A DNA stretch of 64,000 bases from assembly GCA_000092065.1 (NCBI GenBank), contig CP000582.1; one strand, 5' to 3'. The DNA is from Ostreococcus lucimarinus. Its lineage: Eukaryota. The translations under genes and the position numbers were made by a program. Positions 2,797 to 25,759 of the stretch are shown piece by piece (positions within the stretch are counted from its first letter, which is position 1; every line of letters starts with the position of its first letter). Under the pieces are notes generated by a model that was not told the origin of the DNA, made no database searches, and was given only the letters and a program-made list of their open reading frames with translations.

Positions 2797-2833
<37 letters not shown>

Positions 2834-4854: not shown

Positions 4855-4890
4855 CTTCTATACCTATAGCGAATTAATTAATTCTAGTTT

Positions 4891-7258: not shown

Positions 7259-7323
7259 CGCGCGTCGAAGTCTGGGACGGCTGAGGCGCGAGGCGCGAGT
7301 TACAAGGCAAACGTCGCCGCGGG

Positions 7324-8877: not shown

Positions 8878-8997
8878 CGCGCGAGGCGCGCAGTGCGTTC
8901 GAAGCCGACCCGCCGCGCGCGCTCGCCAATCTTCATAAAACGAATGAAACGACCATCGTCTCGCATCACAATTCAAATCAATCGGCGTTCGTCGAGG

Positions 8998-9324: not shown

Positions 9325-9350
9325 GACGCCGTCGCCGTCCGCGTCCGCCT

Positions 9351-9412
9351 GTCGTCGTCGTCGTCGTCGTCGTCGTCAGTCTCGCGGTTTCGTCGTCGGC
9401 GTCCGTCGCGCG

Positions 9413-9445
<33 letters not shown>

Positions 9446-9474
9446 GTCAAAGTCGCGGTTTCGTCGTCGTCGTC
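9351..9474. repeat. Cluster of (GTC)n / (GAC)n microsatellites in the GC-rich spacer upstream of PDCD5
   Basis: Runs of gtcgtcgtc at 9351-9376, 9421-9443 and 9461-9474. An adjacent 20-nt direct repeat gcgcgggctcgcgtcgcgtc occurs twice at about 9487-9526. Confidence 0.8.
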
Positions 9475-10278
9475 GCGCGCGCGCGCCGTCGCGCGGGCTC
9501 GCGTCGCGTCGCGCGGGCTCGCGTCGCGTCGCGTCGCGCGCGCACCGTCCGAAGCGCCGCGGCGTCCATCGCGCGCGCCGTCGCGCGTCGCGCGGTGCCG
9601 CCGCACACGTCGACGCGCGCGCGATGGCTCGAGAGCAGAGGTGCGCGACGACGGCGCGCGCGACGGACGACGACGGCGCGAGGCGCGTCGAGGACGACCG
9701 CGCGATGGACGACCGCGGGTCGAGGACGCGGCGACGCGCGACGGACGCGCGACGGATGCGCGCGAGTTGTTTGAGTTGTTTGAGTTTTTGAGTTTCGACG
9801 CGACGACTGACGCGAGACGACGGACGCGCGCAGCGCGAACGACGAGGACGCGTCGACGAGCTTTTTCTTGGTGTCGCCGAGCGCGGTGGTGGGCGCGAGG
9901 AAGCGCGGGTCGGACGCGGCGTTCGGGACGAGGGACGGCGCGGACGCGCGCGACGGCGCGGAACGCGCGGGGAAGCGACGGAGGAGTTTGCGACTCGCGC
10001 GCGCGGCGCCGGCGCGGGCGAAGGATGATTGCGGCGATGCGCGCGCGAAGGGGACGGGCGCGGCGCGCGCGGTGCCGAAACCGCGAGTTTTGACGAAGGC
10101 GAACGCGAACGTTCCGGCGCCGAGAGGCGCGGCGACGAAAGTCGTCGGCGAGGTCGCGCCGGCGAAGAAATCGTTTCCGGCGCCGCGGTTGGATAAACTG
10201 CGGGGGACGTGAGTGTCGTGACGCGCTCGCCGCGCGGTCGGGTCCTCGAACGTCGCTGAGAAATAGTTACAAGCGTAC

Positions 10279-12267
10279 TCAAATAGATTCCGCGAAGCGG
10301 ACGACGTCGCGAACCGCGCCGCCGCGACACTGACTTCCAGAGCCGTCTAGCCCGTCGAAAGTTCGGGACCAGACGTCGTGCACGAACGCGCGCTCGCGCT
10401 CGAGCGCGAAGCGCGGCTCGCCGTGGACGCCGATGAGCCAAGGAAGGGGCTTTTCTCCGTTTTCTATGACGAATTCGAGCTCGAAGAATACCGGAGCGCC
10501 GACGGCGGCGTATCCGGCGTAATGCGAGTCTTGTATGACGTTCCGTTCTTCCCTGACGCGCGCGCGGAAAGCGCGCACGACGGTTTGACACTGCGCGATC
10601 ATAGTCTTTGAAATGTCGTCCAATCCAAGCAAGCGCGCGCACAAGTCATCGATGTCGACTTCTCGCACCACGGCGGAGGCTTCGTCGCCGCTCAAGCCTC
10701 GATTTGTGAACTCGCGCAAGAACAGCTCGTCGTCGTATTCGTCACCCAAAATCACGCCATCGCCGTACTCGCGCACCGTGGAGTGCACTGACACGTATTG
10801 CGCGATGTACGCGACGTCGAAGCTCGGTTCGCGATCGGGAACGAACGCCGCGCGGACGCGTACCGAGCACTTTCGACCGAGCTCGTCCGTCACGCAGTCC
10901 TCGACGCGTCGCTGTGCGATGAGCCCACCTCGCGATCGTCGCGACGACGAGTCGATGATTTCCTCGCGAAAATACGCCAGCGTCCCGATGCGATTCTTGC
11001 GCTGTTTGAAAAGGCCTGGAAATTTCACGTGCTCGCCTTTGAGAACGTAGAGACGATTCGCGTCGCCAGAGCTCAAGTTTTCATCGATGTTCTCACTCGT
11101 GACCAACGTGGGCGATGAGACCGCGCCAGTGCCGTCGTACTGCGCGATAGCCTCGTGCGCTCGCGTTTTCGATGTCAGGAGTTCGTGCCAATGAGCGCCG
11201 TGGCTCACACTGTTGAACATGTCGAGCGAAGCGAAGAGGGAATCTTCGCCGCGCTCGGCTTCTGCGACCGACTCGCGCGCATTCCGCCACATTTCGCGGT
11301 ACGCCTCCACACTCTCATCGTCTCCACCATCGCACGCTAAGCGTGCGAGCGGATATACCGCCATGATTCCCGCGCCCGCGTGGAGCGCTTGCGTGTACAA
11401 ACTCGTCGGCTCGGCGGCGTAGCCGTTGAGATGCAGCGCGTGCGCGAGCGTGAACAACAACAGCGGATGCTTACCCGGTCTCACGAACTTACCCTCGGGA
11501 CCTCCTGATTTAGCCAACCGCATGAGTTTCACCGCACTCGCGATCGCGCCGAACTGCACGCACATCAGTCGCGCCAGCGCGATCCACGCGTCTGGATAGT
11601 CAAACGCGACGTTGACGCACTTGGCGTACTCCTCCTCGGCGTGATTGTACAACCCCAGATCTTCGCACATTCGTCCCGCGAATACGTACGCGGCGACGCA
11701 ACTGGGCGTGTGCTCGTACGTCGATCGCACGCATGAGAGACCGCGCGCGACGTACCCCTGCGCGCGATACACCGCGCCCAGCTGCAGCGACGCCTCGTAG
11801 TACTCTGGTTCAATCGCCAACGCGCGCTCCACCTTTTCCGCGAACGCGACCGCGGCCGCCCGCGCGCGCGGCGCGCCCTCGGGCGCCACCATCGCGTTCC
11901 TCGCGTCCTCCATCAGCTCCACGACCCTCGGATCGCGATCGCGCGCCTCGGCCGCCGCCGTCATCGCGCGCACCTCGGCGTCTCGCTTCGCCTCGTCCAG
12001 CCCCTCCCGCGCGCTCGCCTCGGCGTCCTCGCGAAGCGCCGCCTCCACGTCGTCCAGCGCGCGACGCGCGTCGTTCACGTCATCGTCGTCGCGCTCGTCC
12101 TCGTCGCCGTCGCGCGCGCGATCCATCGCGTCCGCGCGCGCGCCCTCGATCGCCGCTCGAATCTTTTTCGCATCCTCGAGCACGACCCTCGCGTCGCGTC
12201 TTCGCGCCGTCTCCGCCGCGCGCCGTCGCGCCGTCGCGTACGACGTCGCGCGCTCGAATCCATACAT
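10279..12267 (-). CDS. TPR-repeat protein with a C-terminal tubulin-tyrosine-ligase-like (TTL/ATP-grasp) domain
   Basis: The N-terminal half is TPR-like (EPEYYEASLQLGAVYRAQGY..., AWIALARLMCV...). The C-terminus has RLYVLKGEHV..., and PVFFELEFVIENGEKPLPWLIGVHGEPRF resembles the TTL motif F(D/E)LxGxDFxxD...PWLLEVNxxP. GC3 bias is strong. Confidence 0.6.
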   Translation of the reverse strand: MYGFERATSYATARRRAAETARRRDARVVLEDAKKIRAAIEGARADAMDRARDGDEDERDDDDVNDARRALDDVEAALREDAEASAREGLDEAKRDAEVRAMTAAAEARDRDPRVVELMEDARNAMVAPEGAPRARAAAVAFAEKVERALAIEPEYYEASLQLGAVYRAQGYVARGLSCVRSTYEHTPSCVAAYVFAGRMCEDLGLYNHAEEEYAKCVNVAFDYPDAWIALARLMCVQFGAIASAVKLMRLAKSGGPEGKFVRPGKHPLLLFTLAHALHLNGYAAEPTSLYTQALHAGAGIMAVYPLARLACDGGDDESVEAYREMWRNARESVAEAERGEDSLFASLDMFNSVSHGAHWHELLTSKTRAHEAIAQYDGTGAVSSPTLVTSENIDENLSSGDANRLYVLKGEHVKFPGLFKQRKNRIGTLAYFREEIIDSSSRRSRGGLIAQRRVEDCVTDELGRKCSVRVRAAFVPDREPSFDVAYIAQYVSVHSTVREYGDGVILGDEYDDELFLREFTNRGLSGDEASAVVREVDIDDLCARLLGLDDISKTMIAQCQTVVRAFRARVREERNVIQDSHYAGYAAVGAPVFFELEFVIENGEKPLPWLIGVHGEPRFALERERAFVHDVWSRTFDGLDGSGSQCRGGAVRDVVRFAESI

Positions 12268-12336
12268 GCGTTCGATCGCGCGCGCGCGCGACGCGTCGTC
12301 GTCTCGCGCGTCGGTCGCGCGGTTTCCGCGCGCCGC

Positions 12337-13164
12337 GTGCGTTTTCGAAAAAGCGTTTTTTCGACGATTCGACTCGGCGCGCGGTCAAACCGCGACGCCG
12401 CGTCGTTCGCGCGCTCGATGCGCGCGCTCGTCGGCGGCGCGGACTGCGCGCGCGCGGGCGTCGCGATCGTCCTCGGCGGATTCGCGCGCGATCGCGCGTG
12501 GCGCGACGTCGCGCGCGACGACGACGGCGCGCGATCGTCGCGCGCCGTCGTCGACGATGATTTCGACGACGACGACGCGCGCGCGACGGCGACGGCGACG
12601 CCGACGCTCGGCGCGGCGCGCGACGGCGACGACGCCTTCGTCGCGCTGAACGCGCGCGTCGACCGCGCGGACGCGGCGCGCGTCGCGCTGGAGGCGATCG
12701 ACGCGCTGGACGCGCTCGCGGGCGACGACGCGCTGGACGAGGCGTGCTTCGTCGTGGCGGTGCGCGACGACGCGCTCGAGCGGGACGCGCGCGAGGTGGA
12801 CGACGCGGAGGCGTTTCTCGCGTTCGAAGACGCGCGAAACGGCGCGCGGGCGTCGCGAGCGGAGGGGATCGTGGCGAGGGCGCTCGGCGCGCGAGGGCTC
12901 GACGCGCGAGACGGCGGCGCGCTGGCGACGACGCTGCGGGCGTTGGAGGCGCGCGGGACGAAGACGAGGGTGCTGTACGCGCCGGCACACGAGGCGGGGA
13001 AGTTCGACGCGGACGGCGGGCGAGCGGCGATGGCGGTGAGGCATCGGTTGGGGCGGGCGGTGGAGGCGAGCGCGTTCGCGACGGCGCGCGCGTACGACGA
13101 GGACGCGGCGGCGAGATTGACGCCGGCAGCGGCGGCGAACGAGCGCGAGTCCCTGTACGTGTGA
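12337..13164 (+). CDS. Hypothetical Ala/Asp/Arg-rich protein of unknown function
   Basis: Almost every codon in this frame ends in G/C (coding-like GC3). The overlapping minus-strand ORFs (12075-13220) are S/R/A homopolymer-like. The track start is GTG; the first ATG gives MRALVGGADCARAG... No family recognised. Confidence 0.3.
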   Translation: MRFRKSVFSTIRLGARSNRDAASFARSMRALVGGADCARAGVAIVLGGFARDRAWRDVARDDDGARSSRAVVDDDFDDDDARATATATPTLGAARDGDDAFVALNARVDRADAARVALEAIDALDALAGDDALDEACFVVAVRDDALERDAREVDDAEAFLAFEDARNGARASRAEGIVARALGARGLDARDGGALATTLRALEARGTKTRVLYAPAHEAGKFDADGGRAAMAVRHRLGRAVEASAFATARAYDEDAAARLTPAAAANERESLYV

Positions 13165-13216
13165 TGGCGCGCTAAACTGAACGGTATTGTAATATTAAAT
13201 CGACGAACGCGTTCGC

Positions 13217-14302
13217 TCACGCGGACGGTGGCGGCGGCGGCGGCGGCGGCGGTCCGCGCGCCGGCGGCATCACGATGGTCGGTCGCCCTCGCGCGTCGTA
13301 TCGCACCGGCACGTACATCATCGGCTGCCCAGCGGCGGACGGTGGCGGCGGCGCGCCGCCGACGCCCATCTGTCCCATTGCCGCGCTCGGCGGCGGCGGT
13401 GGCGGTCGCGGAAGCCCGCGCATGCCGAACATACCGCCGCCGCCCATCGGCGACGGCTTGGCGCCGCCGCCGCGCGCGCCGGACGATCGCTTCTTTCCGT
13501 TCGCCTTTTTCCGCGCCGCTTTCGCCGCGGCTTCCTCTTCGTCGTCGCTGAACTCTTCCTCCTCGACCACTTCCTCGTCATCCTTACCGCTCGCGTCGTA
13601 CCCCTTCTTATACAACCTCGCGACGTTCGGAATCCTCCTCGACCGCCCGACGACGACGAACACCTCGTCCCCCGTCTCCGCCGTCACCTCCTCCGGCAAC
13701 CGCAGCGCGTACAGCGGCGCGCTCACCGGTCCAAACACCTCCTCGATCGCTCCCAACCCTCGCCGATCGCGCGTGCACAGCACGCTCTCCTCGTCCAGCG
13801 TCTCGTCGACGCCGTCCAGATCCGTCTCTCGCTCGCGCGTCGCGTCGCCCCTCCCGCTCTGCACCACCATCGTCCGTCCCACCACCGACACCACCCGTCC
13901 CACCGCCTCGATCGTCTCGTCGCTCCCGATCGCCGCCACCGGCGTCACCGCCCCGTCGTCGTTCGCGATCTCGTTCCGCGTCCTCGGCGGCGCGTCGCCG
14001 TCTTCGCCGTCCTCGTCGTCGTCGTCGTCGTCCCCCCCGTCGCGCGCGCGCGCCAACCACTTCGGCACGTCCCTCGCGCTCACGCTCTCGCACGACGTCG
14101 ACCCATCGTCTTCGTCGCTCTCGCTCGTCGTCCACGCGCTCGACGAGCTCGCGTCGTCGCGCCGTCGCGCCTCGTCGAACGCGAATTCCGGCACGCGCGC
14201 CTCGTCGCTCGCGTCGTCGCGTCGCGCGTCGCCCGTCGCGCGGGCCGCCGCCGCGGCGACGCGCACGTCGAGCGGCGCGCGTTCGAGCGCGCGCTCGAGC
14301 AT
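13217..14302 (-). CDS. NAF1: H/ACA snoRNP assembly factor NAF1-like (Gar1-type domain plus Pro-rich C-terminus)
   Basis: RGLGAIEEVFGPVSAPLYALRLPEEV...GDEVFVVVGRSRRIPNVARLYKKGYDASGKDDEEV is a Gar1/Naf1 fold signature. It is followed by acidic and poly-Pro/Gly tails. The track ORF extends antisense into exportin up to 15346, which is implausible. The ATG at about 14302 (MLERALERAPL) is taken as the start. Confidence 0.6.
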   Translation of the reverse strand: MLERALERAPLDVRVAAAAARATGDARRDDASDEARVPEFAFDEARRRDDASSSSAWTTSESDEDDGSTSCESVSARDVPKWLARARDGGDDDDDDEDGEDGDAPPRTRNEIANDDGAVTPVAAIGSDETIEAVGRVVSVVGRTMVVQSGRGDATRERETDLDGVDETLDEESVLCTRDRRGLGAIEEVFGPVSAPLYALRLPEEVTAETGDEVFVVVGRSRRIPNVARLYKKGYDASGKDDEEVVEEEEFSDDEEEAAAKAARKKANGKKRSSGARGGGAKPSPMGGGGMFGMRGLPRPPPPPPSAAMGQMGVGGAPPPPSAAGQPMMYVPVRYDARGRPTIVMPPARGPPPPPPPPPSA

Positions 14303-14430
14303 CGCGCGCGCCGTCGCGGCGCGACGACGCGAAGTGCGGCGCTCGATCGAGTCGTTGCGGGACGTCGCGACGACCGCCGGCACACGCGCGCGCGCTCGCG
14401 ATCGCGACGACGCGACGGCGCGACGACGCG

Positions 14431-14517
14431 ATGGACGTCGCGCGCGCGGTGCTCGACGGCGACGTCGCGGCGCTGGACGAGGTGGTGGAGCAATTCTACG
14501 GCGGTGACTCTGGCAAG
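14431..14517 (+). CDS. XPO1: Exportin-1 (CRM1) exon 1
   Basis: ATG at 14431. MDVARAVLDGDVAALDEVVEQFYGGDSGK aligns with the yeast Crm1 N-terminus ([27 protein letters not shown]). It ends at AAG|GTGCGACG. Confidence 0.55.
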
Positions 14518-14864
14518 GTGCGACGAATCGAACGCGCGAACGAACGAATCGGGACGGAAAGGGCGCGGAAGCGGGCGCGGGACGCGCCGAGACGGGATCG
14601 AAGGCGAGGACGAACGATGGGACGTCGATGGACGGGGCGCGAACGCGCGAGGGCGCGCGGAGGGACGAAAGGGGGGGGGGGGGATCGATGAGATGATCGA
14701 CGCGCGAGCGAAGGCGCGGAGCGAAGGCGCGGAGCGAAGGCGTGGACGGCGCGACGCGCGACGCGCGACGCGAGGGGAGGACGCGCGGACGCGAAAACGC
14801 GCGGATCGGGACGGGCGACGAGAATTTGAGGACTGACGAAGACGGTTCGACTCGACGGCGACAG
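14518..14864 (+). other. XPO1: Predicted spliceosomal intron of XPO1 (about 347 nt; donor GTGCGA, acceptor gacAG)
   Basis: Splicing 14517 to 14865 joins ...FYGGDSGK|RAEAEKILQSLQEHEQTWTRVDGILE in phase 0. This recreates the conserved CRM1 N-terminus. The main ORF otherwise begins at a GTG and lacks it. Confidence 0.5.
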
Positions 14865-17800
14865 CGCGCGGAGGCGGAGAAGATTTTGCAGAGTTTGCAA
14901 GAGCACGAACAGACGTGGACGCGCGTGGATGGGATCTTGGAGACGTCTAAGAATGCGAATACGAAGTTTTTCGCGCTGCAAGTGCTGGATGGGGTGATCA
15001 AGTACCGATGGGGGTTGTTGCCGAACGACCAACGCGAGGGGATCAAAAATTTCGTGAGCAATTTGATCATCAAGTTGAGCGCCGATGAGACGACGTTTAG
15101 GCGGGATCGGGCGTACATCAACAAGATCAATAACGTGCTGGTGCAGATTTTGAAACACGATTGGCCGCATCGCTGGCAGAGTTTCATTCCGGATTTGGTG
15201 GGCGCGGCGAGGACGAGCGAGTCGCTGTGCGAAAACTGCATGAGCATCTTGAAATTGCTGTCGGAGGAAGTTTTCGATTTCAGTCGAGGGGAGATGACGC
15301 AAGACAAAATTAGAGCGCTGAAGACTTCTTTGAACAGCGAGTTCAAGATGATTCACGAGCTGTGCGAGTTTGTCCTGACGCATTCGCAAAAACCAGAGTT
15401 GATAAAGACGACGCTCACGACGCTCAACGCGTTCTTGTCGTGGATACCTCTCGGTTACATCTTCGAGTCGTCGTTGTTGGACACCTTGCTCGCGCTCGCG
15501 CCCAATCCGGCGTATCGCAACATCGCATTCCTCTGTCTGTCGGAGATTGGTGGTTTGAACGTCGAGGCGAAATACGACGCGCACTTCATCAAGCTCTACA
15601 CCGTCGCCGTGGAACACCTGCTGGGCATCTTGCCTCGCGGCGTGAACATCGCCCAGGCGTACGCCAACGGTACGGATGACGAGCAGGCGTTTGTGCAAAA
15701 CTTGGGCATCTTCCTCACTCAATTTTTCAAAGCTCACATCGTGCTCTTGGAATCGACCGCCGAGTTGCAGCAATCGATGCTCATCGGCATCGAGTATCTT
15801 TTGAACATTTCCTACGTGGAAGAACCTGAAGTTTTCAAGGTTTGCCTCGATTACTGGCACTTCATGGTGTGTGATGTGTTCCAATCCGAAGGCGGTGATG
15901 CCGGGGACTTCCGATTCGGCGGAGATGTCGTCGCTCAAAACGAGCGAGGCGTAAACCGTCGAGTGCTGTACGCCGCGCCGTTTAGCAAACTGCGCTTGCT
16001 GATGATTTCGCGCATGGCCAAACCGGAGGAGGTTTTGATCGTAGAGGATGAAAATGGGAACATCGTGCGAGAAACTTTGAAGGATAACGACGTCTTGGTG
16101 CAGTACAAGATTATGCGCGAGACTCTGATTTACCTTGCGCATCTCGACCACAAGGATACCGAAACGCAAATGCTCGAAAAACTGCACGCGCAGCTCAACG
16201 GTCGTGAGTACACGTGGCATACGTTGAACACGCTCTGTTGGGCCATCGGTTCGATCAGTGGATCCATGCAAGAGGATCAAGAGAACCGATTTCTGGTGAC
16301 CGCCATTCGAGACTTGCTCAACCTGTGCGAAATCATGCGCATGAAGGACCACAAAGCCGTCATCGCGTCAAACATCATGTACGTTGTCGGACAGTACCCG
16401 CGCTTCTTACGTCTACATTGGAAGTTCTTGAAGACCGTGGTGAACAAGCTGTTCGAGTTCATGCACGAGACGCATCCGGGTGTGCAGGATATGGCGTGCG
16501 ATACGTTTCTGAAGATCTCCATGAAATGCAAGCGCAAATTTGTCATTTTACAAGTTGGCGAGACGGAGCCGTTCGTCGACGAACTTTTGCGAGGACTGTC
16601 TGACACTATTCGCGACTTAGAGCCGCATCAAGTGCACACGTTCTACGAATCTGTCGGTCACATGATCGGCAGCGAGTTGAACCCGGCGAAGAGAGAAGAG
16701 TACGTGCAGCGATTGATGGCGCCTCCCAATGAGCAGTGGCAACAAATCATGACTCAGGCGCGCCAGAATAGTGAGTGCTTGAAGAATCAAGACGTCATCA
16801 AAAACATCTTGAACATTCTCAAGTCGAACACGCACTTTTGCATGTCTCTTGGCCAACCGTTCCAAAACCAAATGTCAGCCATTTACGCGGATGTTTTGAA
16901 CGTTTACAAGCTTTACAGCGAATTGGTCAGTCAAAGCATCGCGGAAGGCGGGCCGTACGCAAGTAAGTCGTCCTTTGTCAAGTTGTTGCGCTCCGTCAAA
17001 CGAGAAGTTCTTCGACTCATCGAAACATTTGTCGAACGCTGCGACGACCCGCATCTCGTCGCGCAGCAGCTCGTGCCGCAGATGTACGATCCCATCTTGG
17101 GTGACTATGCGCGGAACATTCCGGACGCGCGCGACGCCGAGGTGTTGTCGCTCTTCGCGGCAATCATCAATAAGGTGGAGACTGCGATGACCGATGAAAT
17201 TCCGAAGATCTTCGACGCCGTGTTTGAGTGCACGTTGTCGATGATTACGAAGAACTTTGAGGACTTCCCCGATCATCGACTAAAGTTCTTCCTGCTTCTT
17301 CGTTCGGTAACGAATCACTGCTTCCGAGCTCTCGTTGCGTTGAGCCCGGCGCATTTGAAACTCATCATTGATTCCATTGTCTGGGCATTCCGTCACACCG
17401 AGCGCAACGTCGCGGATGAAGGTTTGAACTTACTTTTGGAGATGATGAAGTACTTTCAACTCTCCGAATACTGCAATCAATTCCACCAAAGCTTCTACTT
17501 GATGACGATGAGCGAGGTCTTCGCCGTCATGACGGATGGTTTTCACAAGCCAGGTTTCAAATTGCACGCTCTCATTCTGCAAAATCTCTTCACTATTAGC
17601 GAAAGTGATCAATTGAGTGCGCCTCTTTGGGACGTTGCGGCGAAGGGGGCGGGCGCTTATCCGTCCAACGCGGCTTTCGTTCAAGAGCACTGCGCGCAGT
17701 TGTTGTGCACCTCGTTCCCGAACATGCCACCAGCTGAAGTTCAAACGTTAGTTCTCGCGATGTTCCAATGCAAGAATGACCTCGCGGCGTTCAAGTCAAC

Positions 17801-17957
17801 GTTGAGGGACTTCTTAGTGCAGACGAAACAATTTAGCAGCGTGGATTTTGCAGAGGAAGAGCAAAGCCGGTTAGCGGCTCAGCGACAAGCGCGGCTTTCA
17901 GCTATTCCGGGGATGGTCAGCGGCGCGAACGTCGGTGACATGGATGACGACGAGTAG
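14865..17957 (+). CDS. XPO1: Exportin-1 (CRM1) main exon
   Basis: The 1071-aa ORF is colinear with CRM1: importin-beta N-terminus WTRVDGILETSKNANTKFFALQVLDGVIKYRWGLLPNDQREGIKNFV, and the CRM1 central and C-terminal regions along its length. Confidence 0.9.
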   Translation, partial: RAEAEKILQSLQEHEQTWTRVDGILETSKNANTKFFALQVLDGVIKYRWGLLPNDQREGIKNFVSNLIIKLSADETTFRRDRAYINKINNVLVQILKHDWPHRWQSFIPDLVGAARTSESLCENCMSILKLLSEEVFDFSRGEMTQDKIRALKTSLNSEFKMIHELCEFVLTHSQKPELIKTTLTTLNAFLSWIPLGYIFESSLLDTLLALAPNPAYRNIAFLCLSEIGGLNVEAKYDAHFIKLYTVAVEHLLGILPRGVNIAQAYANGTDDEQAFVQNLGIFLTQFFKAHIVLLESTAELQQSMLIGIEYLLNISYVEEPEVFKVCLDYWHFMVCDVFQSEGGDAGDFRFGGDVVAQNERGVNRRVLYAAPFSKLRLLMISRMAKPEEVLIVEDENGNIVRETLKDNDVLVQYKIMRETLIYLAHLDHKDTETQMLEKLHAQLNGREYTWHTLNTLCWAIGSISGSMQEDQENRFLVTAIRDLLNLCEIMRMKDHKAVIASNIMYVVGQYPRFLRLHWKFLKTVVNKLFEFMHETHPGVQDMACDTFLKISMKCKRKFVILQVGETEPFVDELLRGLSDTIRDLEPHQVHTFYESVGHMIGSELNPAKREEYVQRLMAPPNEQWQQIMTQARQNSECLKNQDVIKNILNILKSNTHFCMSLGQPFQNQMSAIYADVLNVYKLYSELVSQSIAEGGPYASKSSFVKLLRSVKREVLRLIETFVERCDDPHLVAQQLVPQMYDPILGDYARNIPDARDAEVLSLFAAIINKVETAMTDEIPKIFDAVFECTLSMITKNFEDFPDHRLKFFLLLRSVTNHCFRALVALSPAHLKLIIDSIVWAFRHTERNVADEGLNLLLEMMKYFQLSEYCNQFHQSFYLMTMSEVFAVMTDGFHKPGFKLHALILQNLFTISESDQLSAPLWDVAAKGAGAYPSNAAFVQEHCAQLLCTSFPNMPPAEVQTLVLAMFQCKNDLAAFKSTLRDFLVQTKQFSSVDFAEEEQSRLAAQRQARLSAIPGMVSGANVGDMDDDE

Positions 17958-18010
17958 ATCGACGGCTCTTTAAATACTACGAAATCTAACAATAGCTAAA
18001 TATATATAGT

Positions 18011-19276
18011 TCACACGCCGCTCTTGGGATCGTACACGCGCATCAGCTCCTTCGCCGCTCGCTCGTACGTCTCATCGCTCGTATTCTCGAGGAACAGTGG
18101 TTTTGCGTTTTCGACTTCCTGCGGGCGCGATCGAGCCGCGGCTGCGGCGTACGCCGAGTCGTAGTGTTCTTCTAGTATATCTTGCACGAAAGCATCCCAG
18201 TCTCCACCGGCGATGAGCGCCTTCCACGCATTCACCCTCTCGTGTCCGACGCGCTTCACGAGAACATCTATACACTCCAACAAGCGATCCGTCTCCGTCG
18301 TCTCAAAGTGCTGGTACCCCGCTCGAATCCACTTCACGCGCTCCGACATGGGTATCTCCAGCTGTGTCACCGCTCCTTTGCGCATGCCTGACCACATCGT
18401 GCTGGGCACTTGGACTTTTCCAATCATTGAGCTCTCGCCCTCGACGAACACGGGCCTTGTGGGATCGAACCGGCGCGCCTTGCACGCGATGCGAGAGTCA
18501 AAAAGTTTTTGACTTGGCTGCTCGCGTGCGCCGGGTTCTTCCCCTAGAATCGAGCCACGATGATTTGCCATCACTTCTAAATCGATCACCTGCGCACCCG
18601 CGGCTTCGAGAGCGTCCAATAACTTACCCTTTGCACAACCGGTTTTTCCCGCGACGACGTGATAGGAAAATTGATCCATCCCTCGCAACCATTCGAGCAC
18701 GCCAGCTCGGTAACGTTTATACCCGCCGGGGGCAAAGTGAACATCAAAACCAATTCTGCTGAGCACGTGCGCCAGACTGAGCGACCGCTCACCGCCGCGC
18801 CAACAATAAACTAAAATCTTCGTCGACTTTTCGCAAGCCATGAAATTTTCATCAATTATCTTACTCAAGTTTTGTGCCACGAGCGCTGCCCCGAGTTTCT
18901 TCGCCTCAAACGGGTCGACTTGCTTATATATAGTTCCCACACGTTTCCTCTCTTCGTCATCAAGCACTGGGGTGCTTATCGCTCCCGGGACGTGGTCGTC
19001 CTCGTACTCGCTCGGCGCGCGCGCGTCGCACACGTAGTCGAACGCTCCCGCGTCGAATCCATCGTCGTCGAGCGTCACCGTTCGAATGCGTGGGCCGAGG
19101 TCCAAGAAGTCCTCGGGATAGGTGTGTTTAGCCTGCGCGCGCGCGGGCGCAGGTCCAGCGCGATGTCCCCAGTGCCTAACGACCGCTTCAGGTTTTCGCG
19201 CGAAATGCGCGACAAGCGACGTCGCACGACCGCGCGTCGAGCTCGCGCGAAGTGCGTGCGAGCACATGTGACGCAT
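18011..19276 (-). CDS. selU: tRNA 2-selenouridine synthase (SelU/MnmH/YbbB): rhodanese domain plus P-loop domain, with an approximately 60-aa basic N-terminal extension (putative organellar presequence)
   Basis: VLDDEERKRVGTIYKQ (E. coli LMNDDERAAVGTCYKQ). Rhodanese active-site VYCWRGGERS (LCCARGGQRS). P-loop HVVAGKTGCAKGKLL (VLIGGCTGSGKTLLV). The track start is TTG; the first ATG is at about 19276 (MRHMCSHALRASSTRG...). Confidence 0.8.
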   Translation of the reverse strand: MRHMCSHALRASSTRGRATSLVAHFARKPEAVVRHWGHRAGPAPARAQAKHTYPEDFLDLGPRIRTVTLDDDGFDAGAFDYVCDARAPSEYEDDHVPGAISTPVLDDEERKRVGTIYKQVDPFEAKKLGAALVAQNLSKIIDENFMACEKSTKILVYCWRGGERSLSLAHVLSRIGFDVHFAPGGYKRYRAGVLEWLRGMDQFSYHVVAGKTGCAKGKLLDALEAAGAQVIDLEVMANHRGSILGEEPGAREQPSQKLFDSRIACKARRFDPTRPVFVEGESSMIGKVQVPSTMWSGMRKGAVTQLEIPMSERVKWIRAGYQHFETTETDRLLECIDVLVKRVGHERVNAWKALIAGGDWDAFVQDILEEHYDSAYAAAAARSRPQEVENAKPLFLENTSDETYERAAKELMRVYDPKSGV

Positions 19277-19447
19277 TGAACTCGCGAGCGAATTTGCGAC
19301 ACGCGTCGCGTCACGGTCGACGCGCTGGCGTGTGCTGCACAAGCAGGCGGCGGGACAACGCCGTATTCGGCGAGAAGACGCATTTGAACATTCGTCGGCG
19401 TGTCCGTCACAATGGGCTAGTCTATATCAGCTAATTATCGTGTATTT

Positions 19448-21646
19448 TCATTCGTCGTCGTCGTCTGAATCGCTCTCGTCGTCGTCCTCGAGATCGTAAA
19501 CTTGAACGCGCGTAGCGCCGACGAGAACGCTCGCCAGGCCGCGGTTCGCGCTGACGGCTAAAGGCGCGAGCGGCTCGACGCAGGGTAAAACGCGCTCGCG
19601 AATTTGTATGGAGTTCAAATCCACCAGCGCACCATCGCGCGGCAGCGCTTGAAACGCGCCATCATCCAGGAGCACGAGTCGCGCCTTGGCGCCTCCCATC
19701 ACGTCCTTGGGCTTGAGGAGGAGCGCGATGGAATCGCCCTTGTAAGCGCACGCGTCGACGATGAGCTCGTTCGGCGTTGTCACTGTTGCGGTTCTAAGGC
19801 ACTTATCGTCAAACGCGCGATACATGTGCACGCGATCTCGCAAAGTGTCGACGTGGAAACTTTCTCTGTGCGCTTCGACGGCTTCGGCGTTGGAAAACAC
19901 TGATTGCTCGGTGTTGTCCTGCACCTCATCCGCGTACGTCCACGCACATTTTGCGCTCAACACATCACATGACGATTCTAAAACACCGTTTACTTCACGT
20001 GTGATGCGCGTGAGCGTTTCACACAACGAAAGCGGCTCGCCATCCGAAAGGGCATCGTTGAGTCGTAGCATGGATTCGAGAGGAGGCTGCGCGCCGCGCA
20101 AGAATACTCCGTCGCCGGTGTGCACACGGTCATGACGCACTGAAAGTGCGTAGTCAAGACAATCTTGAGAAACGCCGTTTTTGCTGAACGCCAAATCCAA
20201 GTACTCTTTTACTAAATCCAAACGTGGCGACGGAAGCTGAGCGCCGTGCGCGTCGCCGTCTTCGGCGACGATTTGCGCTCTAATGATGTACACGAAAAAT
20301 GCACGCAGTTGCATCGTTCGTTTTGTCACCACGCGCCCGGCGTCGATAATGGCAAATGTGAACTGCTCACACATCTTTATGACTTCTTCCACGCGCGATT
20401 CATCGATGCCCACGCCATCTGATCCGTAACCGAGTCGCGCCAACCCGAGCAGGGCGTTCAGCCGAAGCATGATGTCATCCATCAAAGGAGCGACCACGCT
20501 CACGAGATGCTCGTGCACGATCGTTAACGCAACGTCTACATCTTTCGCCATTCGCTTGACGTGCGCCATTTTGAATGTGGTCATAAAGAAATGCTCCAAC
20601 GCTTCGTCAAACGTTCCCGTCGTCAAAAGCATCAACAGTCGCTCGCGAAGTTCATAGTACAGGTCCATTTCTTCGCCGTACATCTCTGTCATGAGTAACG
20701 TGTCCGTAAACTGCTTAAATTGATCATCGAGACGACGTTTGTACCCTTGCTCGTACTTCGCGCTAGCTTCCCGCACGACGATAATCGCGCGCTCCAGTGA
20801 CGTCTTCAAGTGCGCAGCGTGCGTGGACACCAAATACACCTCTCTTACGTGCACCGCCATGTACGCCGCGTCCAATCGCGCGAAAGAAGCCTTTCTTCGC
20901 GATGCGTCGCGAACTATCGCATCAACGCTCGTAAAATCATCTCTCGACGCCAACGCCTCGACGCTGCCTGTCTTCGCGAACGCGTCTCGCCATAAGCCCA
21001 CGCGAAACATCCCGAACGCGTGCATCGCGACCACCCCGTTCGCGTTCGCCGCGACGAGGGCGCTAAACTTGCCCGTACTTTCAAAATGATCCACCAACCC
21101 GGCGGCGTTCCACGACTCGCGCTTGCCCGTGAATCTCGCGCTCGCGCCGCCTTCTCTCTCCCGCGCGCCGTCGCGCGTGCCGTTCCATCCGTGCCTCGCC
21201 GCTCGACTCTCGTCGCGCACCACCGCTCCCTCGCGCGCGTCGATCCATCGTAAGCACGTGATTCCACACCCATCGCTTCCGCCTTCTCCGCCTTTATCCC
21301 GTTCCGCCGCTGTCCCGCTCGCGCCGTCGCGCGCGTCCCGCTCGAAGCCTTCCAGCCCCGTAATCACCCTCAAACACTCCCCGTCCTCCGTCGCGTGCGC
21401 CGTGATCGCTCCCGAGGCGTAGCCGACGACGAGAACCTTGCCGTCCGGGCGAAACGTCGCGCGCGTGGGCGTTTCGAGCTCGGGCGCTAAGGTTTTCGTC
21501 CAGAGTTTGTTCCAGTTCAACCGAAACGCGGTTAAAGTGCCGCCGTTCGCGCACGCGACGACGACGAGATCCATCGTCGGACACAGCGCGATCGTCGTCG
21601 CGGGTGCGCCGAGCTTTGCGTCTCGCGCGAGGACGAAGGACGTCAT
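19448..21646 (-). CDS. ANAPC4: Anaphase-promoting complex subunit 4 (APC4) with N-terminal WD40 beta-propeller
   Basis: TIALCPTMDLVVVACANGGTLTAFRLNWNKLWT matches the APC4 N-terminal signature (WSPKRDLIALANTAGEVLLHRL..W). A long helical C-terminal domain follows. The track start is TTG; the ATG at about 21646 is MTSFVLARDAKLG. Confidence 0.75.
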   Translation of the reverse strand: MTSFVLARDAKLGAPATTIALCPTMDLVVVACANGGTLTAFRLNWNKLWTKTLAPELETPTRATFRPDGKVLVVGYASGAITAHATEDGECLRVITGLEGFERDARDGASGTAAERDKGGEGGSDGCGITCLRWIDAREGAVVRDESRAARHGWNGTRDGAREREGGASARFTGKRESWNAAGLVDHFESTGKFSALVAANANGVVAMHAFGMFRVGLWRDAFAKTGSVEALASRDDFTSVDAIVRDASRRKASFARLDAAYMAVHVREVYLVSTHAAHLKTSLERAIIVVREASAKYEQGYKRRLDDQFKQFTDTLLMTEMYGEEMDLYYELRERLLMLLTTGTFDEALEHFFMTTFKMAHVKRMAKDVDVALTIVHEHLVSVVAPLMDDIMLRLNALLGLARLGYGSDGVGIDESRVEEVIKMCEQFTFAIIDAGRVVTKRTMQLRAFFVYIIRAQIVAEDGDAHGAQLPSPRLDLVKEYLDLAFSKNGVSQDCLDYALSVRHDRVHTGDGVFLRGAQPPLESMLRLNDALSDGEPLSLCETLTRITREVNGVLESSCDVLSAKCAWTYADEVQDNTEQSVFSNAEAVEAHRESFHVDTLRDRVHMYRAFDDKCLRTATVTTPNELIVDACAYKGDSIALLLKPKDVMGGAKARLVLLDDGAFQALPRDGALVDLNSIQIRERVLPCVEPLAPLAVSANRGLASVLVGATRVQVYDLEDDDESDSDDDDE

Positions 21647-21833
21647 CGCGGCGCGGTGTGCGGTTGATTCTTCAGTGGATGCGCGCGGCGCGACAGCCAG
21701 AGCGACAGACGCGGCGAATTTCAAACTCGGGGGGCGACAAACAGCGGCGAATCGAGCGGGCGGTGTGGCTAAGACTGTCTTATGATACAAGAGGCTAGTT
21801 ATTACGGTTCGCGGTTGACGATGACGAAGTCCA

Positions 21834-23144
21834 TCACGCGACGTTGGCGACGCTTTCGGCGCCGCGCGGCCGCGATAAAAAGGAGAAATCGGGCTCGACG
21901 ACGGGCTTTAAAAACAGCACTGGTTGCGCCATCAACGCGTTGCCGACGATCAAAGGGAGCCAGAGCGCGCCCGCGGAGAGGCGGAACGACAGTGGGGCGG
22001 CGGGCCACACTCGATCGATGAGCATGCTGAACCCGCGAACGAGCAAGATGTGCGTGAGATAGCAGTAGAGCGTTCGCGAACCCATGGCGGTGATGAAGGA
22101 CTTCTTACTCGGCACGAGCGCCAAGACGCCCAAGCCGGCGAATGCGGTGAAGACGTAAAGCGCGATGCGTTTGAGCATGTCGATGAACTGCGCGGCCACG
22201 GAGGACGACTTGTACGGCGCGATGGACCAGATGAACCACTGCACGTCGTCGAAGCACTCTTCGAAGACGTTGAGCACGACGTAGAGAAGCGCGTACGCCA
22301 CCGCGAGAACAATCGCCCCGAACGTCGCGCGACGACCGTAATCGATACTCTGCAAGCGCTGCAAGTGCTCCGGCTTCAACGCGACGCAGCCGAGGAAAAA
22401 ATACACGGAATACACGAAGACGCGCTGCCAATCGAAAGCCGCGTTTCCATTCTTCGTCGTCGCCGTCTCCGTGAACCCCACGAACAGCCCCATGAACACA
22501 CTCAGCGCCACGATGACCCCATTTCGTAACCCCCCCACCACGAGCACGCTCATGCGCCAAAAGAACAGCGCGAGCAAGTACCACATCACCCCCACCGGCG
22601 CCCACCACTGCAGCGGCGCGACGTCGTAATAATTAATCGCCACGTAAAACGCCTGCCACACCGCGTACGTCCCCAACAGCGTCCCGAACGCCCCTCGCAC
22701 GCGCACCAACAAATTCACCGCGCTCGCCTCGTCCTCCCTCGCCGCGCGGAGCCAACTCTTCGACAGGTATCCGCTCGCGCCCGCGAACAACGGCATCCCC
22801 GTCGCGCACAACACCAAATATAACGTTCGCACGTGTCCGTGCGTCGTCGCGTTCACCGCGTCCCTCTCGCACCACCCTCGCCGCTCGTGCGCGTCCAGCG
22901 CTCTCAGGAACTCCTGCAGCGCGTGATTCCACACGACGATCAGCATGAGCGCGTACTTCAGGTTGTCCAGGTACGCGTCCCGTCGGTCGCTCGCGCGTTC
23001 GTCGAACGCGCGCGGCGTCGCCGCGTCCGCGTCCAGGCTCGCGTCGAGGTTTCTCGCCCGTCGCGTCGCGCGCGCGTCGCGCGACATCGCGTATCCGGTC
23101 GCGTCGCCGTCTCGCGCCGTCGCGTAACACCATCCAGTTTTCAT
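21834..23144 (-). CDS. Acyltransferase family 3 (OatA-like) multi-pass membrane protein
   Basis: True ATG at 23144. LDNLKYALMLIVVWNH opening motif of PF01757, and about 10 predicted hydrophobic helices. Confidence 0.65.
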   Translation of the reverse strand: MKTGWCYATARDGDATGYAMSRDARATRRARNLDASLDADAATPRAFDERASDRRDAYLDNLKYALMLIVVWNHALQEFLRALDAHERRGWCERDAVNATTHGHVRTLYLVLCATGMPLFAGASGYLSKSWLRAAREDEASAVNLLVRVRGAFGTLLGTYAVWQAFYVAINYYDVAPLQWWAPVGVMWYLLALFFWRMSVLVVGGLRNGVIVALSVFMGLFVGFTETATTKNGNAAFDWQRVFVYSVYFFLGCVALKPEHLQRLQSIDYGRRATFGAIVLAVAYALLYVVLNVFEECFDDVQWFIWSIAPYKSSSVAAQFIDMLKRIALYVFTAFAGLGVLALVPSKKSFITAMGSRTLYCYLTHILLVRGFSMLIDRVWPAAPLSFRLSAGALWLPLIVGNALMAQPVLFLKPVVEPDFSFLSRPRGAESVANVA

Positions 23145-23308
23145 CAGTCAGAAGCGTCTTAACACACGGATCATCGGTCGGACGCGCTTGAACACACGGA
23201 CCATCAGCGCCGCCGACGACGATCGACGCGCGCGCGCGACGTCGGACATCGCGCGACGCCGCGCGCGCTCGGACGCCGCGACGACGCCGCGGTCGACGCC
23301 GGTCCGCG

Positions 23309-25399
23309 ATGTCCGACACGGCTCGCGCGACGCGGGTGAAGAATAAAGCGCCCGCGCCGGTGCAAATCACCGCGGAACAAATCGTGCGCGAATCCGCGGA
23401 GCGCGCGGAGGACGTGTACGGGGCGCCGAAGCGGAAGATCGCGGACCAGGAGGAGCTGAAGGAGTACAGATACGAACAGCGGAAGCAGTTCGAGGATCGA
23501 GTGCGGTCGTCGTACTGGGAACCGCGGGCGTGGATACGGTACGCGAAGTGGGAGGAGGGACAGGGGGATTTGCCGAGGGCGCGAAGCGTGTGGGAGCGAG
23601 CGCTGGAACATCACGGACGGGACGTGCCGATATGGTTGCAGTACGCGGAGATGGAGATGAAGAACAAAGCGATCAATCACGCGAGGAACGTGTGGGAGCG
23701 GGCGTGCTCGACGCTGCCGAGGATTGATGTGTTTTGGTACAAGTACGTGAACATGGAGGAGACGCTCGGGCAGGTTGCGGCGGCGAGACAGGTTTTCGAG
23801 AAATGGATGAAGTGGGAACCCGAACACACGGCGTGGAACGCGTATGTGAAGATGGAGCAGAGGTACGGGGAGAAAGAGCGGGCGAGGGATATCTTTCAGC
23901 GGTATGTGCAGGTGCACCCGGACGTGAAGGCGTGGACGCGCTGGGCAAAGTTTGAGTTTTCGTCGGGCGAACGCGACAAGGCGCGCGAGGTGTACGAAGC
24001 CGCGGTGGAGTTTCTGCGGAACGAACCAGAGGTTGGGAACTTATACGCCAACTTTGCCAAGTTTGAGGAGATGTGTCACGAAGTTGAGCGCGCTCGGGCG
24101 ATTTATAAATTCGCTCTCGATCGTTTGCCCAAGGAGCAAGCCGAGTCTGTGTACAAGGAGTTTATGAAGTTTGAAAAGATGCACGGAAATCGAGAAGGGA
24201 TCGAGGACGTCGTTGTGGGGCAACGACGGTTCAAGTACGAGGAAGAAGTGTCCAAGAATCCGCTGAACTACGACACTTGGTTCGATTACATTAGACTAGA
24301 AGAAAACGCCGGCGACATGGCGAAGACGCGCGAGGTGTACGAACGCGCCATCGCCAACGTGCCGCCAGCGAACGAAAAACGCTTTTGGCAGCGATACATT
24401 TATATTTGGATCAACTACGCGCTTTACGAAGAGCTCGAGGCGCGAGACGTGGAACGCACGCGAGAGGTGTACCGAGCGTGCCTCAAGGTGATTCCACACG
24501 CCGAGTTTTCGTTTTCAAAGATTTGGATCATGGCGGCAAAGTTCGAGCTTCGTCAGCGACGACTCGATGCGTGCCGTAAGATTTTTGGATTGGCCATTGG
24601 ATTAGCACCGAAGGCAAAGATATTCGCGACTTACATTGAGATCGAGTTCCAGCTCGGGAACGTCGACAGGTGTCGCACCCTGTACGAAAAGTACTTGGAA
24701 ATTGAGCCGCAAAATTGCTCGACGTGGATCAAGTACGCCGAACTCGAGCGATCGCTCGGAGAAATCGAACGTGGGCGCTCGATTTTCGAACTCGCGGTTG
24801 ATCAGGCCATGCTAGACATGCCGGAGGTACTTTGGAAGGCGTACATCGATTTCGAGACGTCCGAGGGAGAGCGCGAGCGTACGCGCGCGCTTTACGAGCG
24901 TCTTCTCGAGCGTACGAAGCACGTCAAGGTATGGATGTCTTACGCGCGCTTCGAAGCAACACCGATTGTTGTTGTGGATGACGACGCCGACGACGCTGCG
25001 ATAGCCGCCGCCACCGCCGCGGCGGAGAACGACGAGCACGAACGCCTCGAGACGCGCCAAGCGAAAAGCCGCGCCGTGTACGAGCGAGCGCTCGCTGAAC
25101 TCAAAGAAATCGATCCAGACGCCAAAGAAGAGCGTGTCATGCTTCTCGAGGCGTGGAAGTCATTCGAAGACACCTTACCGAGCGAATTCTCGAAATCCGC
25201 CGACGTCAAGGCGCGTCTTCCCAAGCGCGTTAAGCGCAAGCGCGCCGTCGAGGACGACGACGGTCGCGAAATCGCACAGGAAGAGTACTACGATTACGTC
25301 TTCCCCGACGACGCCGGCGCCGCGCAACCGTCGCTCAAGCTTCTCGAAGCCGCGTACGCGTGGAAGAAGGCCAAAGCCGCGGCTGAGGCGACGGATTAA
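23309..25399 (+). CDS. CRNKL1: Crooked-neck-like pre-mRNA splicing factor (CRNKL1/Clf1/Syf3, HAT repeats)
   Basis: True ATG at 23309. The N-terminus VKNKAPAPVQITAEQIVRE...YWEPRAWIRYAKWEEGQGDLPRARSVWERALE is followed by more than 14 HAT repeats (W..Y..FE...). It is colinear with Clf1/CRNKL1. Confidence 0.9.
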   Translation: MSDTARATRVKNKAPAPVQITAEQIVRESAERAEDVYGAPKRKIADQEELKEYRYEQRKQFEDRVRSSYWEPRAWIRYAKWEEGQGDLPRARSVWERALEHHGRDVPIWLQYAEMEMKNKAINHARNVWERACSTLPRIDVFWYKYVNMEETLGQVAAARQVFEKWMKWEPEHTAWNAYVKMEQRYGEKERARDIFQRYVQVHPDVKAWTRWAKFEFSSGERDKAREVYEAAVEFLRNEPEVGNLYANFAKFEEMCHEVERARAIYKFALDRLPKEQAESVYKEFMKFEKMHGNREGIEDVVVGQRRFKYEEEVSKNPLNYDTWFDYIRLEENAGDMAKTREVYERAIANVPPANEKRFWQRYIYIWINYALYEELEARDVERTREVYRACLKVIPHAEFSFSKIWIMAAKFELRQRRLDACRKIFGLAIGLAPKAKIFATYIEIEFQLGNVDRCRTLYEKYLEIEPQNCSTWIKYAELERSLGEIERGRSIFELAVDQAMLDMPEVLWKAYIDFETSEGERERTRALYERLLERTKHVKVWMSYARFEATPIVVVDDDADDAAIAAATAAAENDEHERLETRQAKSRAVYERALAELKEIDPDAKEERVMLLEAWKSFEDTLPSEFSKSADVKARLPKRVKRKRAVEDDDGREIAQEEYYDYVFPDDAGAAQPSLKLLEAAYAWKKAKAAAEATD

Positions 25400-25759
25400 A
25401 CGGATAAACACACCATATCCATCTATGATAGCACTCCAGACCCTTCGAATACGACAAAACCAAAACCTACGCCATCCGTACCTCAACGCCGCGCGCGCTC
25501 GAACGTCACACGCGCTCGCCCGACGCGTACGGCGGACTCGCGCCGGGCCGACACGACGGATCACTGAGGTGACTCCGCGCACACGCACGATTCAGCGCGC
25601 GCACGCGGCGCCCGCGCGCGCCGCGCACGGGCCGCGCGCGAACGCGAATTCCAGGCGGCGACCGACGCGGCGACGCGACCGACGCGCGACGACCAAACGC
25701 GCGTCCATCGGCTACCCGAGCGGTGAAGACGTCGACGTCAGCATCGACATCGACGCCGA

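Follow-up and report, generated by a model that had tools for sequence, protein, structure and literature searches.

A bacterial-type tRNA 2-selenouridine synthase ortholog in the nuclear genome of Ostreococcus lucimarinus and its putatively organelle-imported algal relatives

Introduction

Between the genes for exportin-1 (CRM1) and anaphase-promoting complex subunit 4 (APC4), a 64,000-nucleotide stretch of DNA from the alga Ostreococcus lucimarinus (GenBank assembly GCA_000092065.1, contig CP000582.1; hereafter, the window) carries a gene whose predicted product is a full-length ortholog of the bacterial tRNA 2-selenouridine synthase, which goes by the names MnmH and SelU. The gene is not newly discovered, as the proteins of O. 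tauri, Klebsormidium, and O. lucimarinus are already named tRNA 2-selenouridine synthase in databases. Its identity represents ordinary homology-based annotation, and the novelty assigned to it in an earlier reading of the same DNA (the original prediction) was overstated. What the present analysis adds is the membership of this protein in a leader-bearing clade that is apparently exclusively algal, has a distinctive P-loop, and exhibits no cyanobacterial affinity.

Comparative genomics of selenium counts three traits: selenocysteine (Sec), selenouridine, and the selenium cofactor. For the second of these, ybbB markers are given for prokaryotes only (Mariotti 2015), and an earlier survey to whose genome sets just three animal genomes had been added reported no eukaryotic ybbB (Romero 2005). 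In reviews, selenouridine figures among the ways in which prokaryotes use selenium. Two surveys of algal selenoproteomes make no mention of it, and a review of microalgal selenium genes lists mnmH only as mainly bacterial. The premise of the original prediction that selenouridine is regarded as an essentially prokaryotic trait is in agreement with these sources. Our full-text search of the literature yielded no description of SelU from a eukaryote.

Results

An intact, intron-less SelU gene

The gene occupies the minus strand of the window as an intact, intron-less open reading frame (ORF) of 443 codons, extending from a TTG triplet at 19342 to position 18011. Because no ATG precedes codon 23 of this ORF, the eukaryotic coding sequence likely begins at that codon (Table 1). 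NCBI, JGI, and further collections already contain an identical 421-residue protein and name it tRNA 2-selenouridine synthase. The RefSeq entry XP_001416347.1 (O. lucimarinus CCE9901), which belongs to the same 90% cluster, is a partial 'predicted protein' of 295 amino acids, and the window supports the complete coding sequence of 421 amino acids. All of the motifs quoted in the original prediction, namely CWRGGERS (CARGGQRS in E. coli), DDEERKRVGTIYKQ, and GKTGCAKGKL, are found in the translation. This translation, together with scores above the cutoffs of the NCBIfam equivalog models described below, upholds the proposal that the ORF at 18011-19342 is a real, full-length SelU/MnmH gene.

Table 1. 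Features of the SelU locus and its immediate neighbors, in window coordinates
Feature	Position	Strand	Details and basis
SelU/MnmH ortholog, likely complete coding sequence	18011..19276	-	421 aa plus TGA stop; starts MRHMCSH; no intron; maximal ORF extends to TTG at 19342
N-terminal extension, residues 1-61; putative organelle transit peptide	19094..19276	-	Absent in bacterial SelU; composition, AlphaFold, alignment
Short motif YPEDFLDLGPRIR, residues 53-65	19082..19120	-	Conserved in Ostreococcus, Bathycoccus, Cymbomonas, and Klebsormidium; absent in E. coli and Burkholderiales
Rhodanese domain including SelU-specific insertion (DDEERKRVGTIYKQ...AKKLGAALV)	18683..19051	-	Pfam PF00581, E = 1.4e-09
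Rhodanese active-site loop CWRGGERS, catalytic Cys158 (E. coli C97)	18782..18805	-	Alignment, translation
C-terminal P-loop domain AAA_SelU (PF26341), nucleotide-kinase-like fold	18014..18667	-	Precomputed PF26341 of orthologs, AlphaFold, Foldseek
Variant Walker A GKTGCAKG	18626..18649	-	Lys216 (E. coli K155) kept; Ala for the preceding Gly, Gly for the following Ser/Thr; alignment
Exportin-1/CRM1	14742..17957	+	Convergent with SelU, stop codons 53 bp apart; same neighbor in Bathycoccus
APC4	19448..21790	-	Stop codon 171 bp upstream of the ATG of SelU; same neighbor in Bathycoccus

Family membership and conserved residues

The protein scores above the cutoffs of three NCBIfam models. The MnmH equivalog NF008752 yields 398.6 bits (cutoff 266) over profile positions 15-350 of 357, whereas TIGR03167 and NF008750 yield 321.6 bits (cutoff 219.75) and 307.4 bits (cutoff 241), respectively. 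Models for the split SelU of archaea give scores of 68.5 bits (TIGR04568) and 33.2 bits (TIGR04569), which are far under their cutoffs of 200 and 180. Both halves of the algal protein are recognisable to these models, but in the archaeal system, as seen in Methanococcus, they are encoded by two adjacent genes and the order of the domains is reversed. In the O. lucimarinus protein the rhodanese domain and the SelU-type P-loop domain reside in a single polypeptide, which is the architecture of MnmH/SelU, and identity to SelU of E. coli MG1655 amounts to 30% over the aligned core.

The rhodanese region matches the structure of the rhodanese domain from a Clostridium SelU-like protein (PDB 3g5j, E = 3.1e-18); the PDB holds only this half, and no full-length SelU structure was found there. 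The insertion of approximately 33-36 amino acids that is specific to SelU rhodanese domains, located in the region DDEERKRVGTIYKQVDPFEAKKLGAALV, aligns without gaps, and within it A125 and G129 (E. coli A63 and G67) are invariant. For the C-terminal half, precomputed annotation assigns PF26341 to P0001, a sequence with 99% identity, as well as to all orthologs. An AlphaFold model calculated from a 64-sequence alignment predicts a confident two-domain core, with a mean predicted local distance difference test (pLDDT) score of 87.4, and with the majority of residues 70-420 scoring above 90. Foldseek comparisons of the P-loop half reveal weak resemblance to dephospho-CoA, adenylate, and shikimate kinases.

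In E. coli SelU, selenation in vivo depends absolutely on C97, K155 is required for geranylation, which the K155A substitution abolishes, and substitutions at A63, G67, and R129 raise geranylation (PMC4830565). The equivalents of these five residues are invariant in our alignments of 12 and of 64 sequences. The algal and E. coli proteins thus align at each of these positions and share the rhodanese domain with its SelU-specific insertion as well as the P-loop. They differ in that E. coli SelU has no 61-residue leader, carries GCTGSGKT in place of GKTGCAKG and CARGGQRS in place of CWRGGERS, and in that the algal gene is nuclear.

A variant P-loop shared among algal sequences

The canonical Walker A consensus, G-x4-G-K-[ST], is not matched by the algal sequence GKTGCAKG. 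The Walker A assignment in the original prediction thus holds with regard to the presence of the sequence and the retained lysine, but not as a canonical motif, because glycine replaces the serine or threonine that follows the lysine. Bacterial SelU P-loops have the form G-x-T-G-S-G-K-[ST], whereas the O. lucimarinus protein and all of its close relatives exhibit G-x-T-G-[CS]-[AG]-K-G, to which we refer as the K-G P-loop.

The distribution of this variant was surveyed in a library of 1.84 billion proteins, from which the best 150 representatives at 50% identity were taken. The K-G ending occurs in 19 of these 150, most of which rank among the closest matches and bear leaders. No example was found among the genomes of the 80 bacterial species that are closest in GTDB, where all 79 motif-matched sequences end in K[ST] and one sequence was unmatched, and the same 80 species revealed no candidate bacterial donor lineage possessing the K-G ending. 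The active-site loop of K-G sequences usually reads CWRGG[ED]RS, whereas bacteria mostly carry Lys, Asn, or Gln at the variable site; Glu or Asp is also present in a few Polynucleobacter-like bacteria. Two short K-G sequences that lack a leader (P0036 and P0045) sit on contigs of 2-3 kb. A GDA1_CD39 neighbor suggests that P0036 is eukaryotic, and the context of P0045 is uninformative.

We interpret the K-G P-loop as a variant rather than a dead site, because the lysine is retained, the domain is predicted to share a kinase-like fold, and adenylate kinases are known to bind phosphate with a P-loop that includes GKG (GxPGxGKGT). Likewise, the non-canonical Walker A probably represents a variant of the clade rather than a loss of family membership. 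A different interpretation is that the function of the algal clade has changed, such that its members make no selenouridine and either only geranylate or prenylate tRNA or carry out some other sulfur transfer. This would be in keeping with substitutions in both the P-loop and the active-site loop that run across the algal clade and are absent or rare in the 80 bacterial species. Moreover, geranyl pyrophosphate is believed to bind at the P-loop of SelU (PMC4830565), and the K-G ending could therefore alter the handling of the co-substrate. However, the five functionally implicated residues are all retained, the protein remains above the cutoffs of the equivalog models, and a SelD or Sec system exists in every named host for which we found selenium data (Ostreococcus, Klebsormidium, and Trebouxia). 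With these observations and the precedent of the adenylate kinases, a change of function seems distinctly improbable to us.

A native algal gene

The genes surrounding SelU are eukaryotic throughout the window. In addition to CRM1 and APC4, they encode Syf1, DNA polymerase delta, a CAF1B/HIR1-type WD40 protein, COG3, a chlorophyll a/b-binding protein, and a mitochondrial carrier, among others. In Bathycoccus prasinos, the genes for APC4, SelU, and CRM1 occur in the same order and orientation. The collinear block extends from 13217 to 25399 in the window and from 1 to 13389 on the Bathycoccus sequence (L084), comprising Gar1/Naf1, CRM1, SelU, APC4, a variable gene, and Syf1; the product of the variable gene differs between the two species, being an acyltransferase in one and an alpha/beta hydrolase in the other. 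The locus was also recovered independently on a metagenome contig from the Kiel Fjord, with 99% protein identity. G+C content at third codon positions is 0.64 in SelU and 0.67-0.85 in the neighboring genes, with which its relative synonymous codon usage shows a correlation of 0.75. The Klebsormidium nitens ortholog is divided into at least six exons spread over 4.6 kb.

These observations bear on the possibility that the sequence is a bacterial contaminant, a chimera of the assembly, or the product of very recent horizontal transfer. Other members of the family are bacterial or archaeal, and one close relative (P0020), derived from a metagenome-assembled genome (MAG), has been deposited in NCBI as 'tRNA 2-selenouridine(34) synthase MnmH [bacterium]'. 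However, P0020 carries a 94-residue basic leader and a K-G P-loop and falls inside the Mamiellophyceae clade; because of this leader and placement, it is probably eukaryotic DNA, perhaps Micromonas-like, that was mis-binned as bacterial. In O. lucimarinus, eukaryotic genes lie 53 bp and 171 bp from SelU on one contiguous sequence, and the eukaryote-type proteins form a clade of their own (bootstrap 0.995; see below). Contamination or chimerism is ruled out by the Bathycoccus synteny, the Klebsormidium introns, the native-like codon usage, and the independent metagenome contig, and we regard the combined possibility, including very recent transfer, as practically negligible. The claim of the original prediction that a bacterial-type SelU/MnmH is encoded in a eukaryotic nuclear genome, and the absence of bacterial contamination, which it proposed to confirm by codon usage and flanking genes, are both sustained, the former also by the family scores.

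Phylogenetic position of the algal clade

Named organisms whose SelU has the K-G P-loop are O. lucimarinus, O. tauri, B. prasinos, Cymbomonas tetramitiformis, K. nitens, Trebouxia spp., and Pelagophyceae sp. CCMP2097, and the leader-bearing clade to which they belong appears to be widespread and exclusively algal. The O. tauri ortholog (Q01DZ1, XP_003075190.1) possesses the same K-G P-loop and a leader and differs in nothing essential; the representative of its 90% cluster (P0008) is 80% identical to the O. lucimarinus protein by BLASTP and 72% identical over the full alignment. Among the Trebouxia entries, a 'hypothetical protein' of 2485 amino acids from Trebouxia sp. C0005 (P0172, DBA79308.1) shares a 90% cluster with Trebouxia SelU proteins of 511-670 amino acids, and probably represents a gene model that merges neighboring genes.

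A neighbor-joining tree was constructed from 124 sequences (44 eukaryote-type, 79 bacterial, and E. coli as the outgroup) using 352 columns, Kimura distances, and 200 bootstraps. In this tree, eukaryote-type SelU is monophyletic with a bootstrap value of 0.995, and its sister group consists of 73 mostly betaproteobacterial sequences, a placement that is weak (0.555). The nearest bacterial sequences are betaproteobacterial MnmH proteins, with 41-51% identity. These proteins, from Burkholderiales, Nitrosomonadales, Usitatibacter, and others, have the CWRGGxRS loop in common with the algal sequences, but they are leaderless and possess a canonical GK[ST]. Sequences from three cyanobacteria, one SAR116 alphaproteobacterium, one member of the Thiotrichales, and one of the Actinomycetota fall outside the group formed by algae and betaproteobacteria. 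When 117 more divergent representatives were added, giving a tree of 241 sequences, all 68 K-G sequences still grouped together, although basal bootstrap values did not exceed 0.2. The monophyly of the clade consequently rests on the restricted set of sequences.

The original prediction had considered an endosymbiotic origin. A cyanobacterial source, as expected for a gene derived from the plastid endosymbiont, finds no support, as the cyanobacterial homologs lie outside the algal-plus-betaproteobacterial group; the node that decides this is the one with a bootstrap value of 0.555 in a distance tree. Our reading is that the gene would have been acquired once, long ago, from a bacterium, with no cyanobacterial signature in the sequences, and would then have descended vertically among the green algae; at least one lineage of ochrophytes possesses it as well.

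Supply of selenophosphate

The window provides no selenium context beyond SelU itself: within its 64 kb, we found no SelD gene, no selenocysteine insertion sequence (SECIS) element or other Rfam match, and no tRNA gene. Elsewhere in the genome, one bacterial-like fusion of an NADH dehydrogenase to SelD(Cys) is encoded on chromosome 17 of O. lucimarinus, with a single counterpart on chromosome 18 of O. tauri (Mariotti 2015, supplement). Co-occurrence of SelD, which the original prediction had called for, is provided by this published evidence. The fusion had been noted in Ostreococcus earlier (Zhang et al. 2008), and further listed hosts are Chlorella, Coccomyxa, Aureococcus, Phaeodactylum, Ectocarpus, Emiliania, Toxoplasma, and, as a doubtful case, Hydra; the majority of eukaryotic copies form one cluster, which also takes in two sequences from Rhodospirillales (Mariotti 2015). 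Algal selenoproteome surveys report complete Sec machinery in Klebsormidium and list Trebouxia among the selenoprotein-bearing algae.

In bacteria, selD adjoins selU in 35 of the 80 loci that we fetched. A MAG assigned to Candidatus Puniceispirillum (SAR116; L024, positions 107-3487) contains an NADH-dehydrogenase-SelD fusion gene that lies immediately upstream of selU and shares its strand. Transfer of both genes to algae from one such operon is not supported by the tree, as the SelU encoded by L024 lies outside the algal clade.

The leader and its probable destination

Measured from the ATG to the start of E. coli SelU, the leader of the O. lucimarinus protein (residues 1-61) is composed of 16% Arg plus Lys and 18% Ala, and carries a net charge of +6. 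It is rich in Ala, Ser, and Arg and contains a single acidic residue before position 55. The original prediction of a basic extension of approximately 60 amino acids preceding the conserved core is borne out by this length and presequence-like composition. The leader is predicted to be disordered, with AlphaFold pLDDT values below 50 at residues 1-28 and 34-39 that rise above 84 only after approximately residue 60. Leaders are present in all 26 eukaryote-type sequences compared, where they range in length from 47 to 208 amino acids and vary in sequence. These are rich in Ala, Ser, Thr, and Arg, in most cases have fewer acidic residues than the core, and carry a net positive charge in 25 of the 26 representatives. 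The exception is the long leader of Klebsormidium, which has a net charge of -8 and is not acid-poor relative to the core. Some non-green members begin with a hydrophobic, signal-peptide-like segment. The mature protein probably begins at the conserved motif YPEDFLDLGPRIR, at the boundary between leader and core. The composition, predicted disorder, and variability of these leaders fit an import signal, and from them we infer, on what we consider good grounds, that the protein is imported into an organelle.

With regard to which organelle this might be, two lines of evidence lean toward the plastid. The first is that plant plastid tRNAs carry 5-methylaminomethyl-2-thiouridine (mnm5s2U), a SelU substrate, which is made by plastid-targeted enzymes of bacterial type (PMC9976899). 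One such enzyme, MnmM of Arabidopsis and rice, offers a parallel to algal SelU in being the product of a nuclear, bacterial-type gene that has an N-terminal chloroplast signal and acts in the xm5s2U34 pathway of plastid tRNAs (PMC9976899). It differs in belonging to an unrelated protein family and in catalyzing methylation at C5 rather than the exchange of sulfur for selenium at C2. The second line of evidence is that two clusters of K-G type SelU are fused at their C termini to DUF1823 (PF08853). The closest free-standing relatives of this domain that are named to organism come from plastid-bearing pelagophytes, dictyochophytes, diatoms, raphidophytes, haptophytes, and cryptophytes (for example, Aureoumbra, Guillardia, Diacronema, and Emiliania). 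SelU-DUF1823 fusions are encoded in the marine metagenome at L088 455-2317, L089 854-2716, and L090 78-1940.

The protein might instead be delivered to the mitochondrion, where tRNA-Lys, tRNA-Glu, and tRNA-Gln bearing wobble bases of the 5-carboxymethylaminomethyl-2-thiouridine (cmnm5s2U) type would serve as its substrates. The Arg/Ala-rich leader is moderately amphipathic at approximately residues 16-40 (hydrophobic moment up to 0.52), and plastid and mitochondrial presequences of green algae look alike. However, the named hosts of the clade are all photosynthetic algae, and the DUF1823 fusion points to an association with plastids. Neither of these points is decisive, and we consider the mitochondrion an unlikely destination, while favoring the plastid.

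Other features of the window

Several additional features of the window were noted. The CRM1 ORF (14742-17957, plus strand) contains no ATG before its IBN_N domain, codon 167 being the earliest. Translation of CRM1 must therefore begin in a short upstream exon, which implies the presence of a 5′ intron in a genome that is otherwise intron-poor. On the plus strand at 25134-28427, an ORF of 1097 amino acids fuses a PALP domain to a group-II decarboxylase domain dependent on pyridoxal phosphate (PLP; Pyridoxal_deC). Its PALP portion is similar to cysteine synthase, cystathionine beta-synthase, and cysteate synthase, with all NCBIfam matches under cutoff. This unusual fusion of two PLP enzymes may possibly make a sulfur-containing amine. 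Another ORF (61342-63963, minus strand; 873 amino acids) combines a PhyH domain (phytanoyl-CoA dioxygenase-like) with a family-2 glycosyltransferase domain, which represents an odd pairing. Finally, G+C content is raised at 12001-14000 (0.73) and 54001-56000 (0.70), as compared with 0.5-0.65 in most other 2-kb stretches. In these two regions, numerous ORFs overlap one another on both strands, and Pfam matches are absent apart from one Gar1/Naf1 domain.

Discussion

We hold with moderate confidence that this native nuclear gene encodes a functional SelU/MnmH ortholog that is imported into an organelle, with the plastid favored, where it would selenate organellar tRNAs. According to this proposal, SelU would be synthesized in the cytosol with a cleavable presequence of approximately 50-60 residues and would then be imported, more probably into the plastid than into the mitochondrion. 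Its substrates would be the organelle-encoded, bacterial-type tRNA-Lys(UUU), tRNA-Glu(UUC), and tRNA-Gln(UUG) carrying (c)mnm5s2U at position 34. Lys216 of the P-loop would bind the phosphate of the co-substrate and the 2-thio group would be activated, as occurs in E. coli by way of an S-geranyl intermediate formed from geranyl pyrophosphate. Cys158 would then mediate the substitution of selenium for sulfur, with selenophosphate provided by the NADH-dehydrogenase-SelD fusion.

Two observations weigh against this proposal. The Walker A motif lacks its canonical Ser/Thr and the active-site loop carries a Glu residue where bacteria mostly have Lys, Gln, or Asn, and so the use of substrates could differ from that of the bacterial enzyme. 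In addition, the published NADH-SelD models of O. lucimarinus and O. tauri start approximately 10-13 residues ahead of the Rossmann motif and show no obvious leader (Mariotti 2015, supplement), and therefore selenophosphate may arise in a compartment other than that of SelU.

The latter point would suit a cytosolic enzyme that selenates 5-methoxycarbonylmethyl-2-thiouridine (mcm5s2U) in cytosolic tRNAs, with the N-terminal extension representing a disordered appendage rather than a transit peptide, as selenophosphate for Sec synthesis is probably cytosolic. In addition, MnmH from Salmonella geranylates 2-thiouridines bearing different C5 side chains (PMC4830565). Selenium-containing tRNAs have also long been reported in Chlamydomonas, plants, and mammalian cells, although their chemistry is unresolved (PMC7216251). 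On the other hand, a leader is found in every eukaryote-type ortholog compared, is net positive in nearly all of them, and is not conserved in sequence, as expected of import signals. The hydrophobic, signal-peptide-like starts of some members are like those in algae with secondary plastids, and fusion to DUF1823 associates the protein with plastid-bearing algae. We therefore judge a cytosolic location to be quite unlikely, and continue to favor import into an organelle.

The distribution of the clade also permits a broader, more tentative proposal. Photosynthetic eukaryotes from at least two supergroups, encompassing the green lineage from Mamiellophyceae to Klebsormidium, a streptophyte, as well as the pelagophytes, which are stramenopiles, might share a dedicated organellar selenouridine pathway composed of K-G SelU, as a clade specific to eukaryotes, and the bacterial-type NADH-SelD fusion found in similar algae, perhaps co-acquired from a bacterial selD-selU pair. 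We regard this as possible, but we would not expect it to prove correct in this general form.

O. tauri is genetically tractable, and the analysis of nucleosides by liquid chromatography-mass spectrometry is routine. As a natural variant, the K-G P-loop could be of use in identifying the ligand of the P-loop in SelU. The kind of protein described here and its probable chemistry are already known, and the finding instead touches a blind spot of the selenium literature. If the proposed pathway exists, selenouridine would represent a second selenium-utilization trait of eukaryotes besides selenocysteine, and it might furnish a molecular basis for the decades-old, unexplained reports of selenium-containing tRNAs in Chlamydomonas and plants. 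Selenium would then act on organelle translation and, by way of plastid tRNA-Glu, perhaps on tetrapyrrole synthesis. If the conserved algal SelU is active, selenium would tune wobble decoding in the plastids or mitochondria of abundant marine phytoplankton, adding a tRNA-level component to the known selenium requirement of these organisms.

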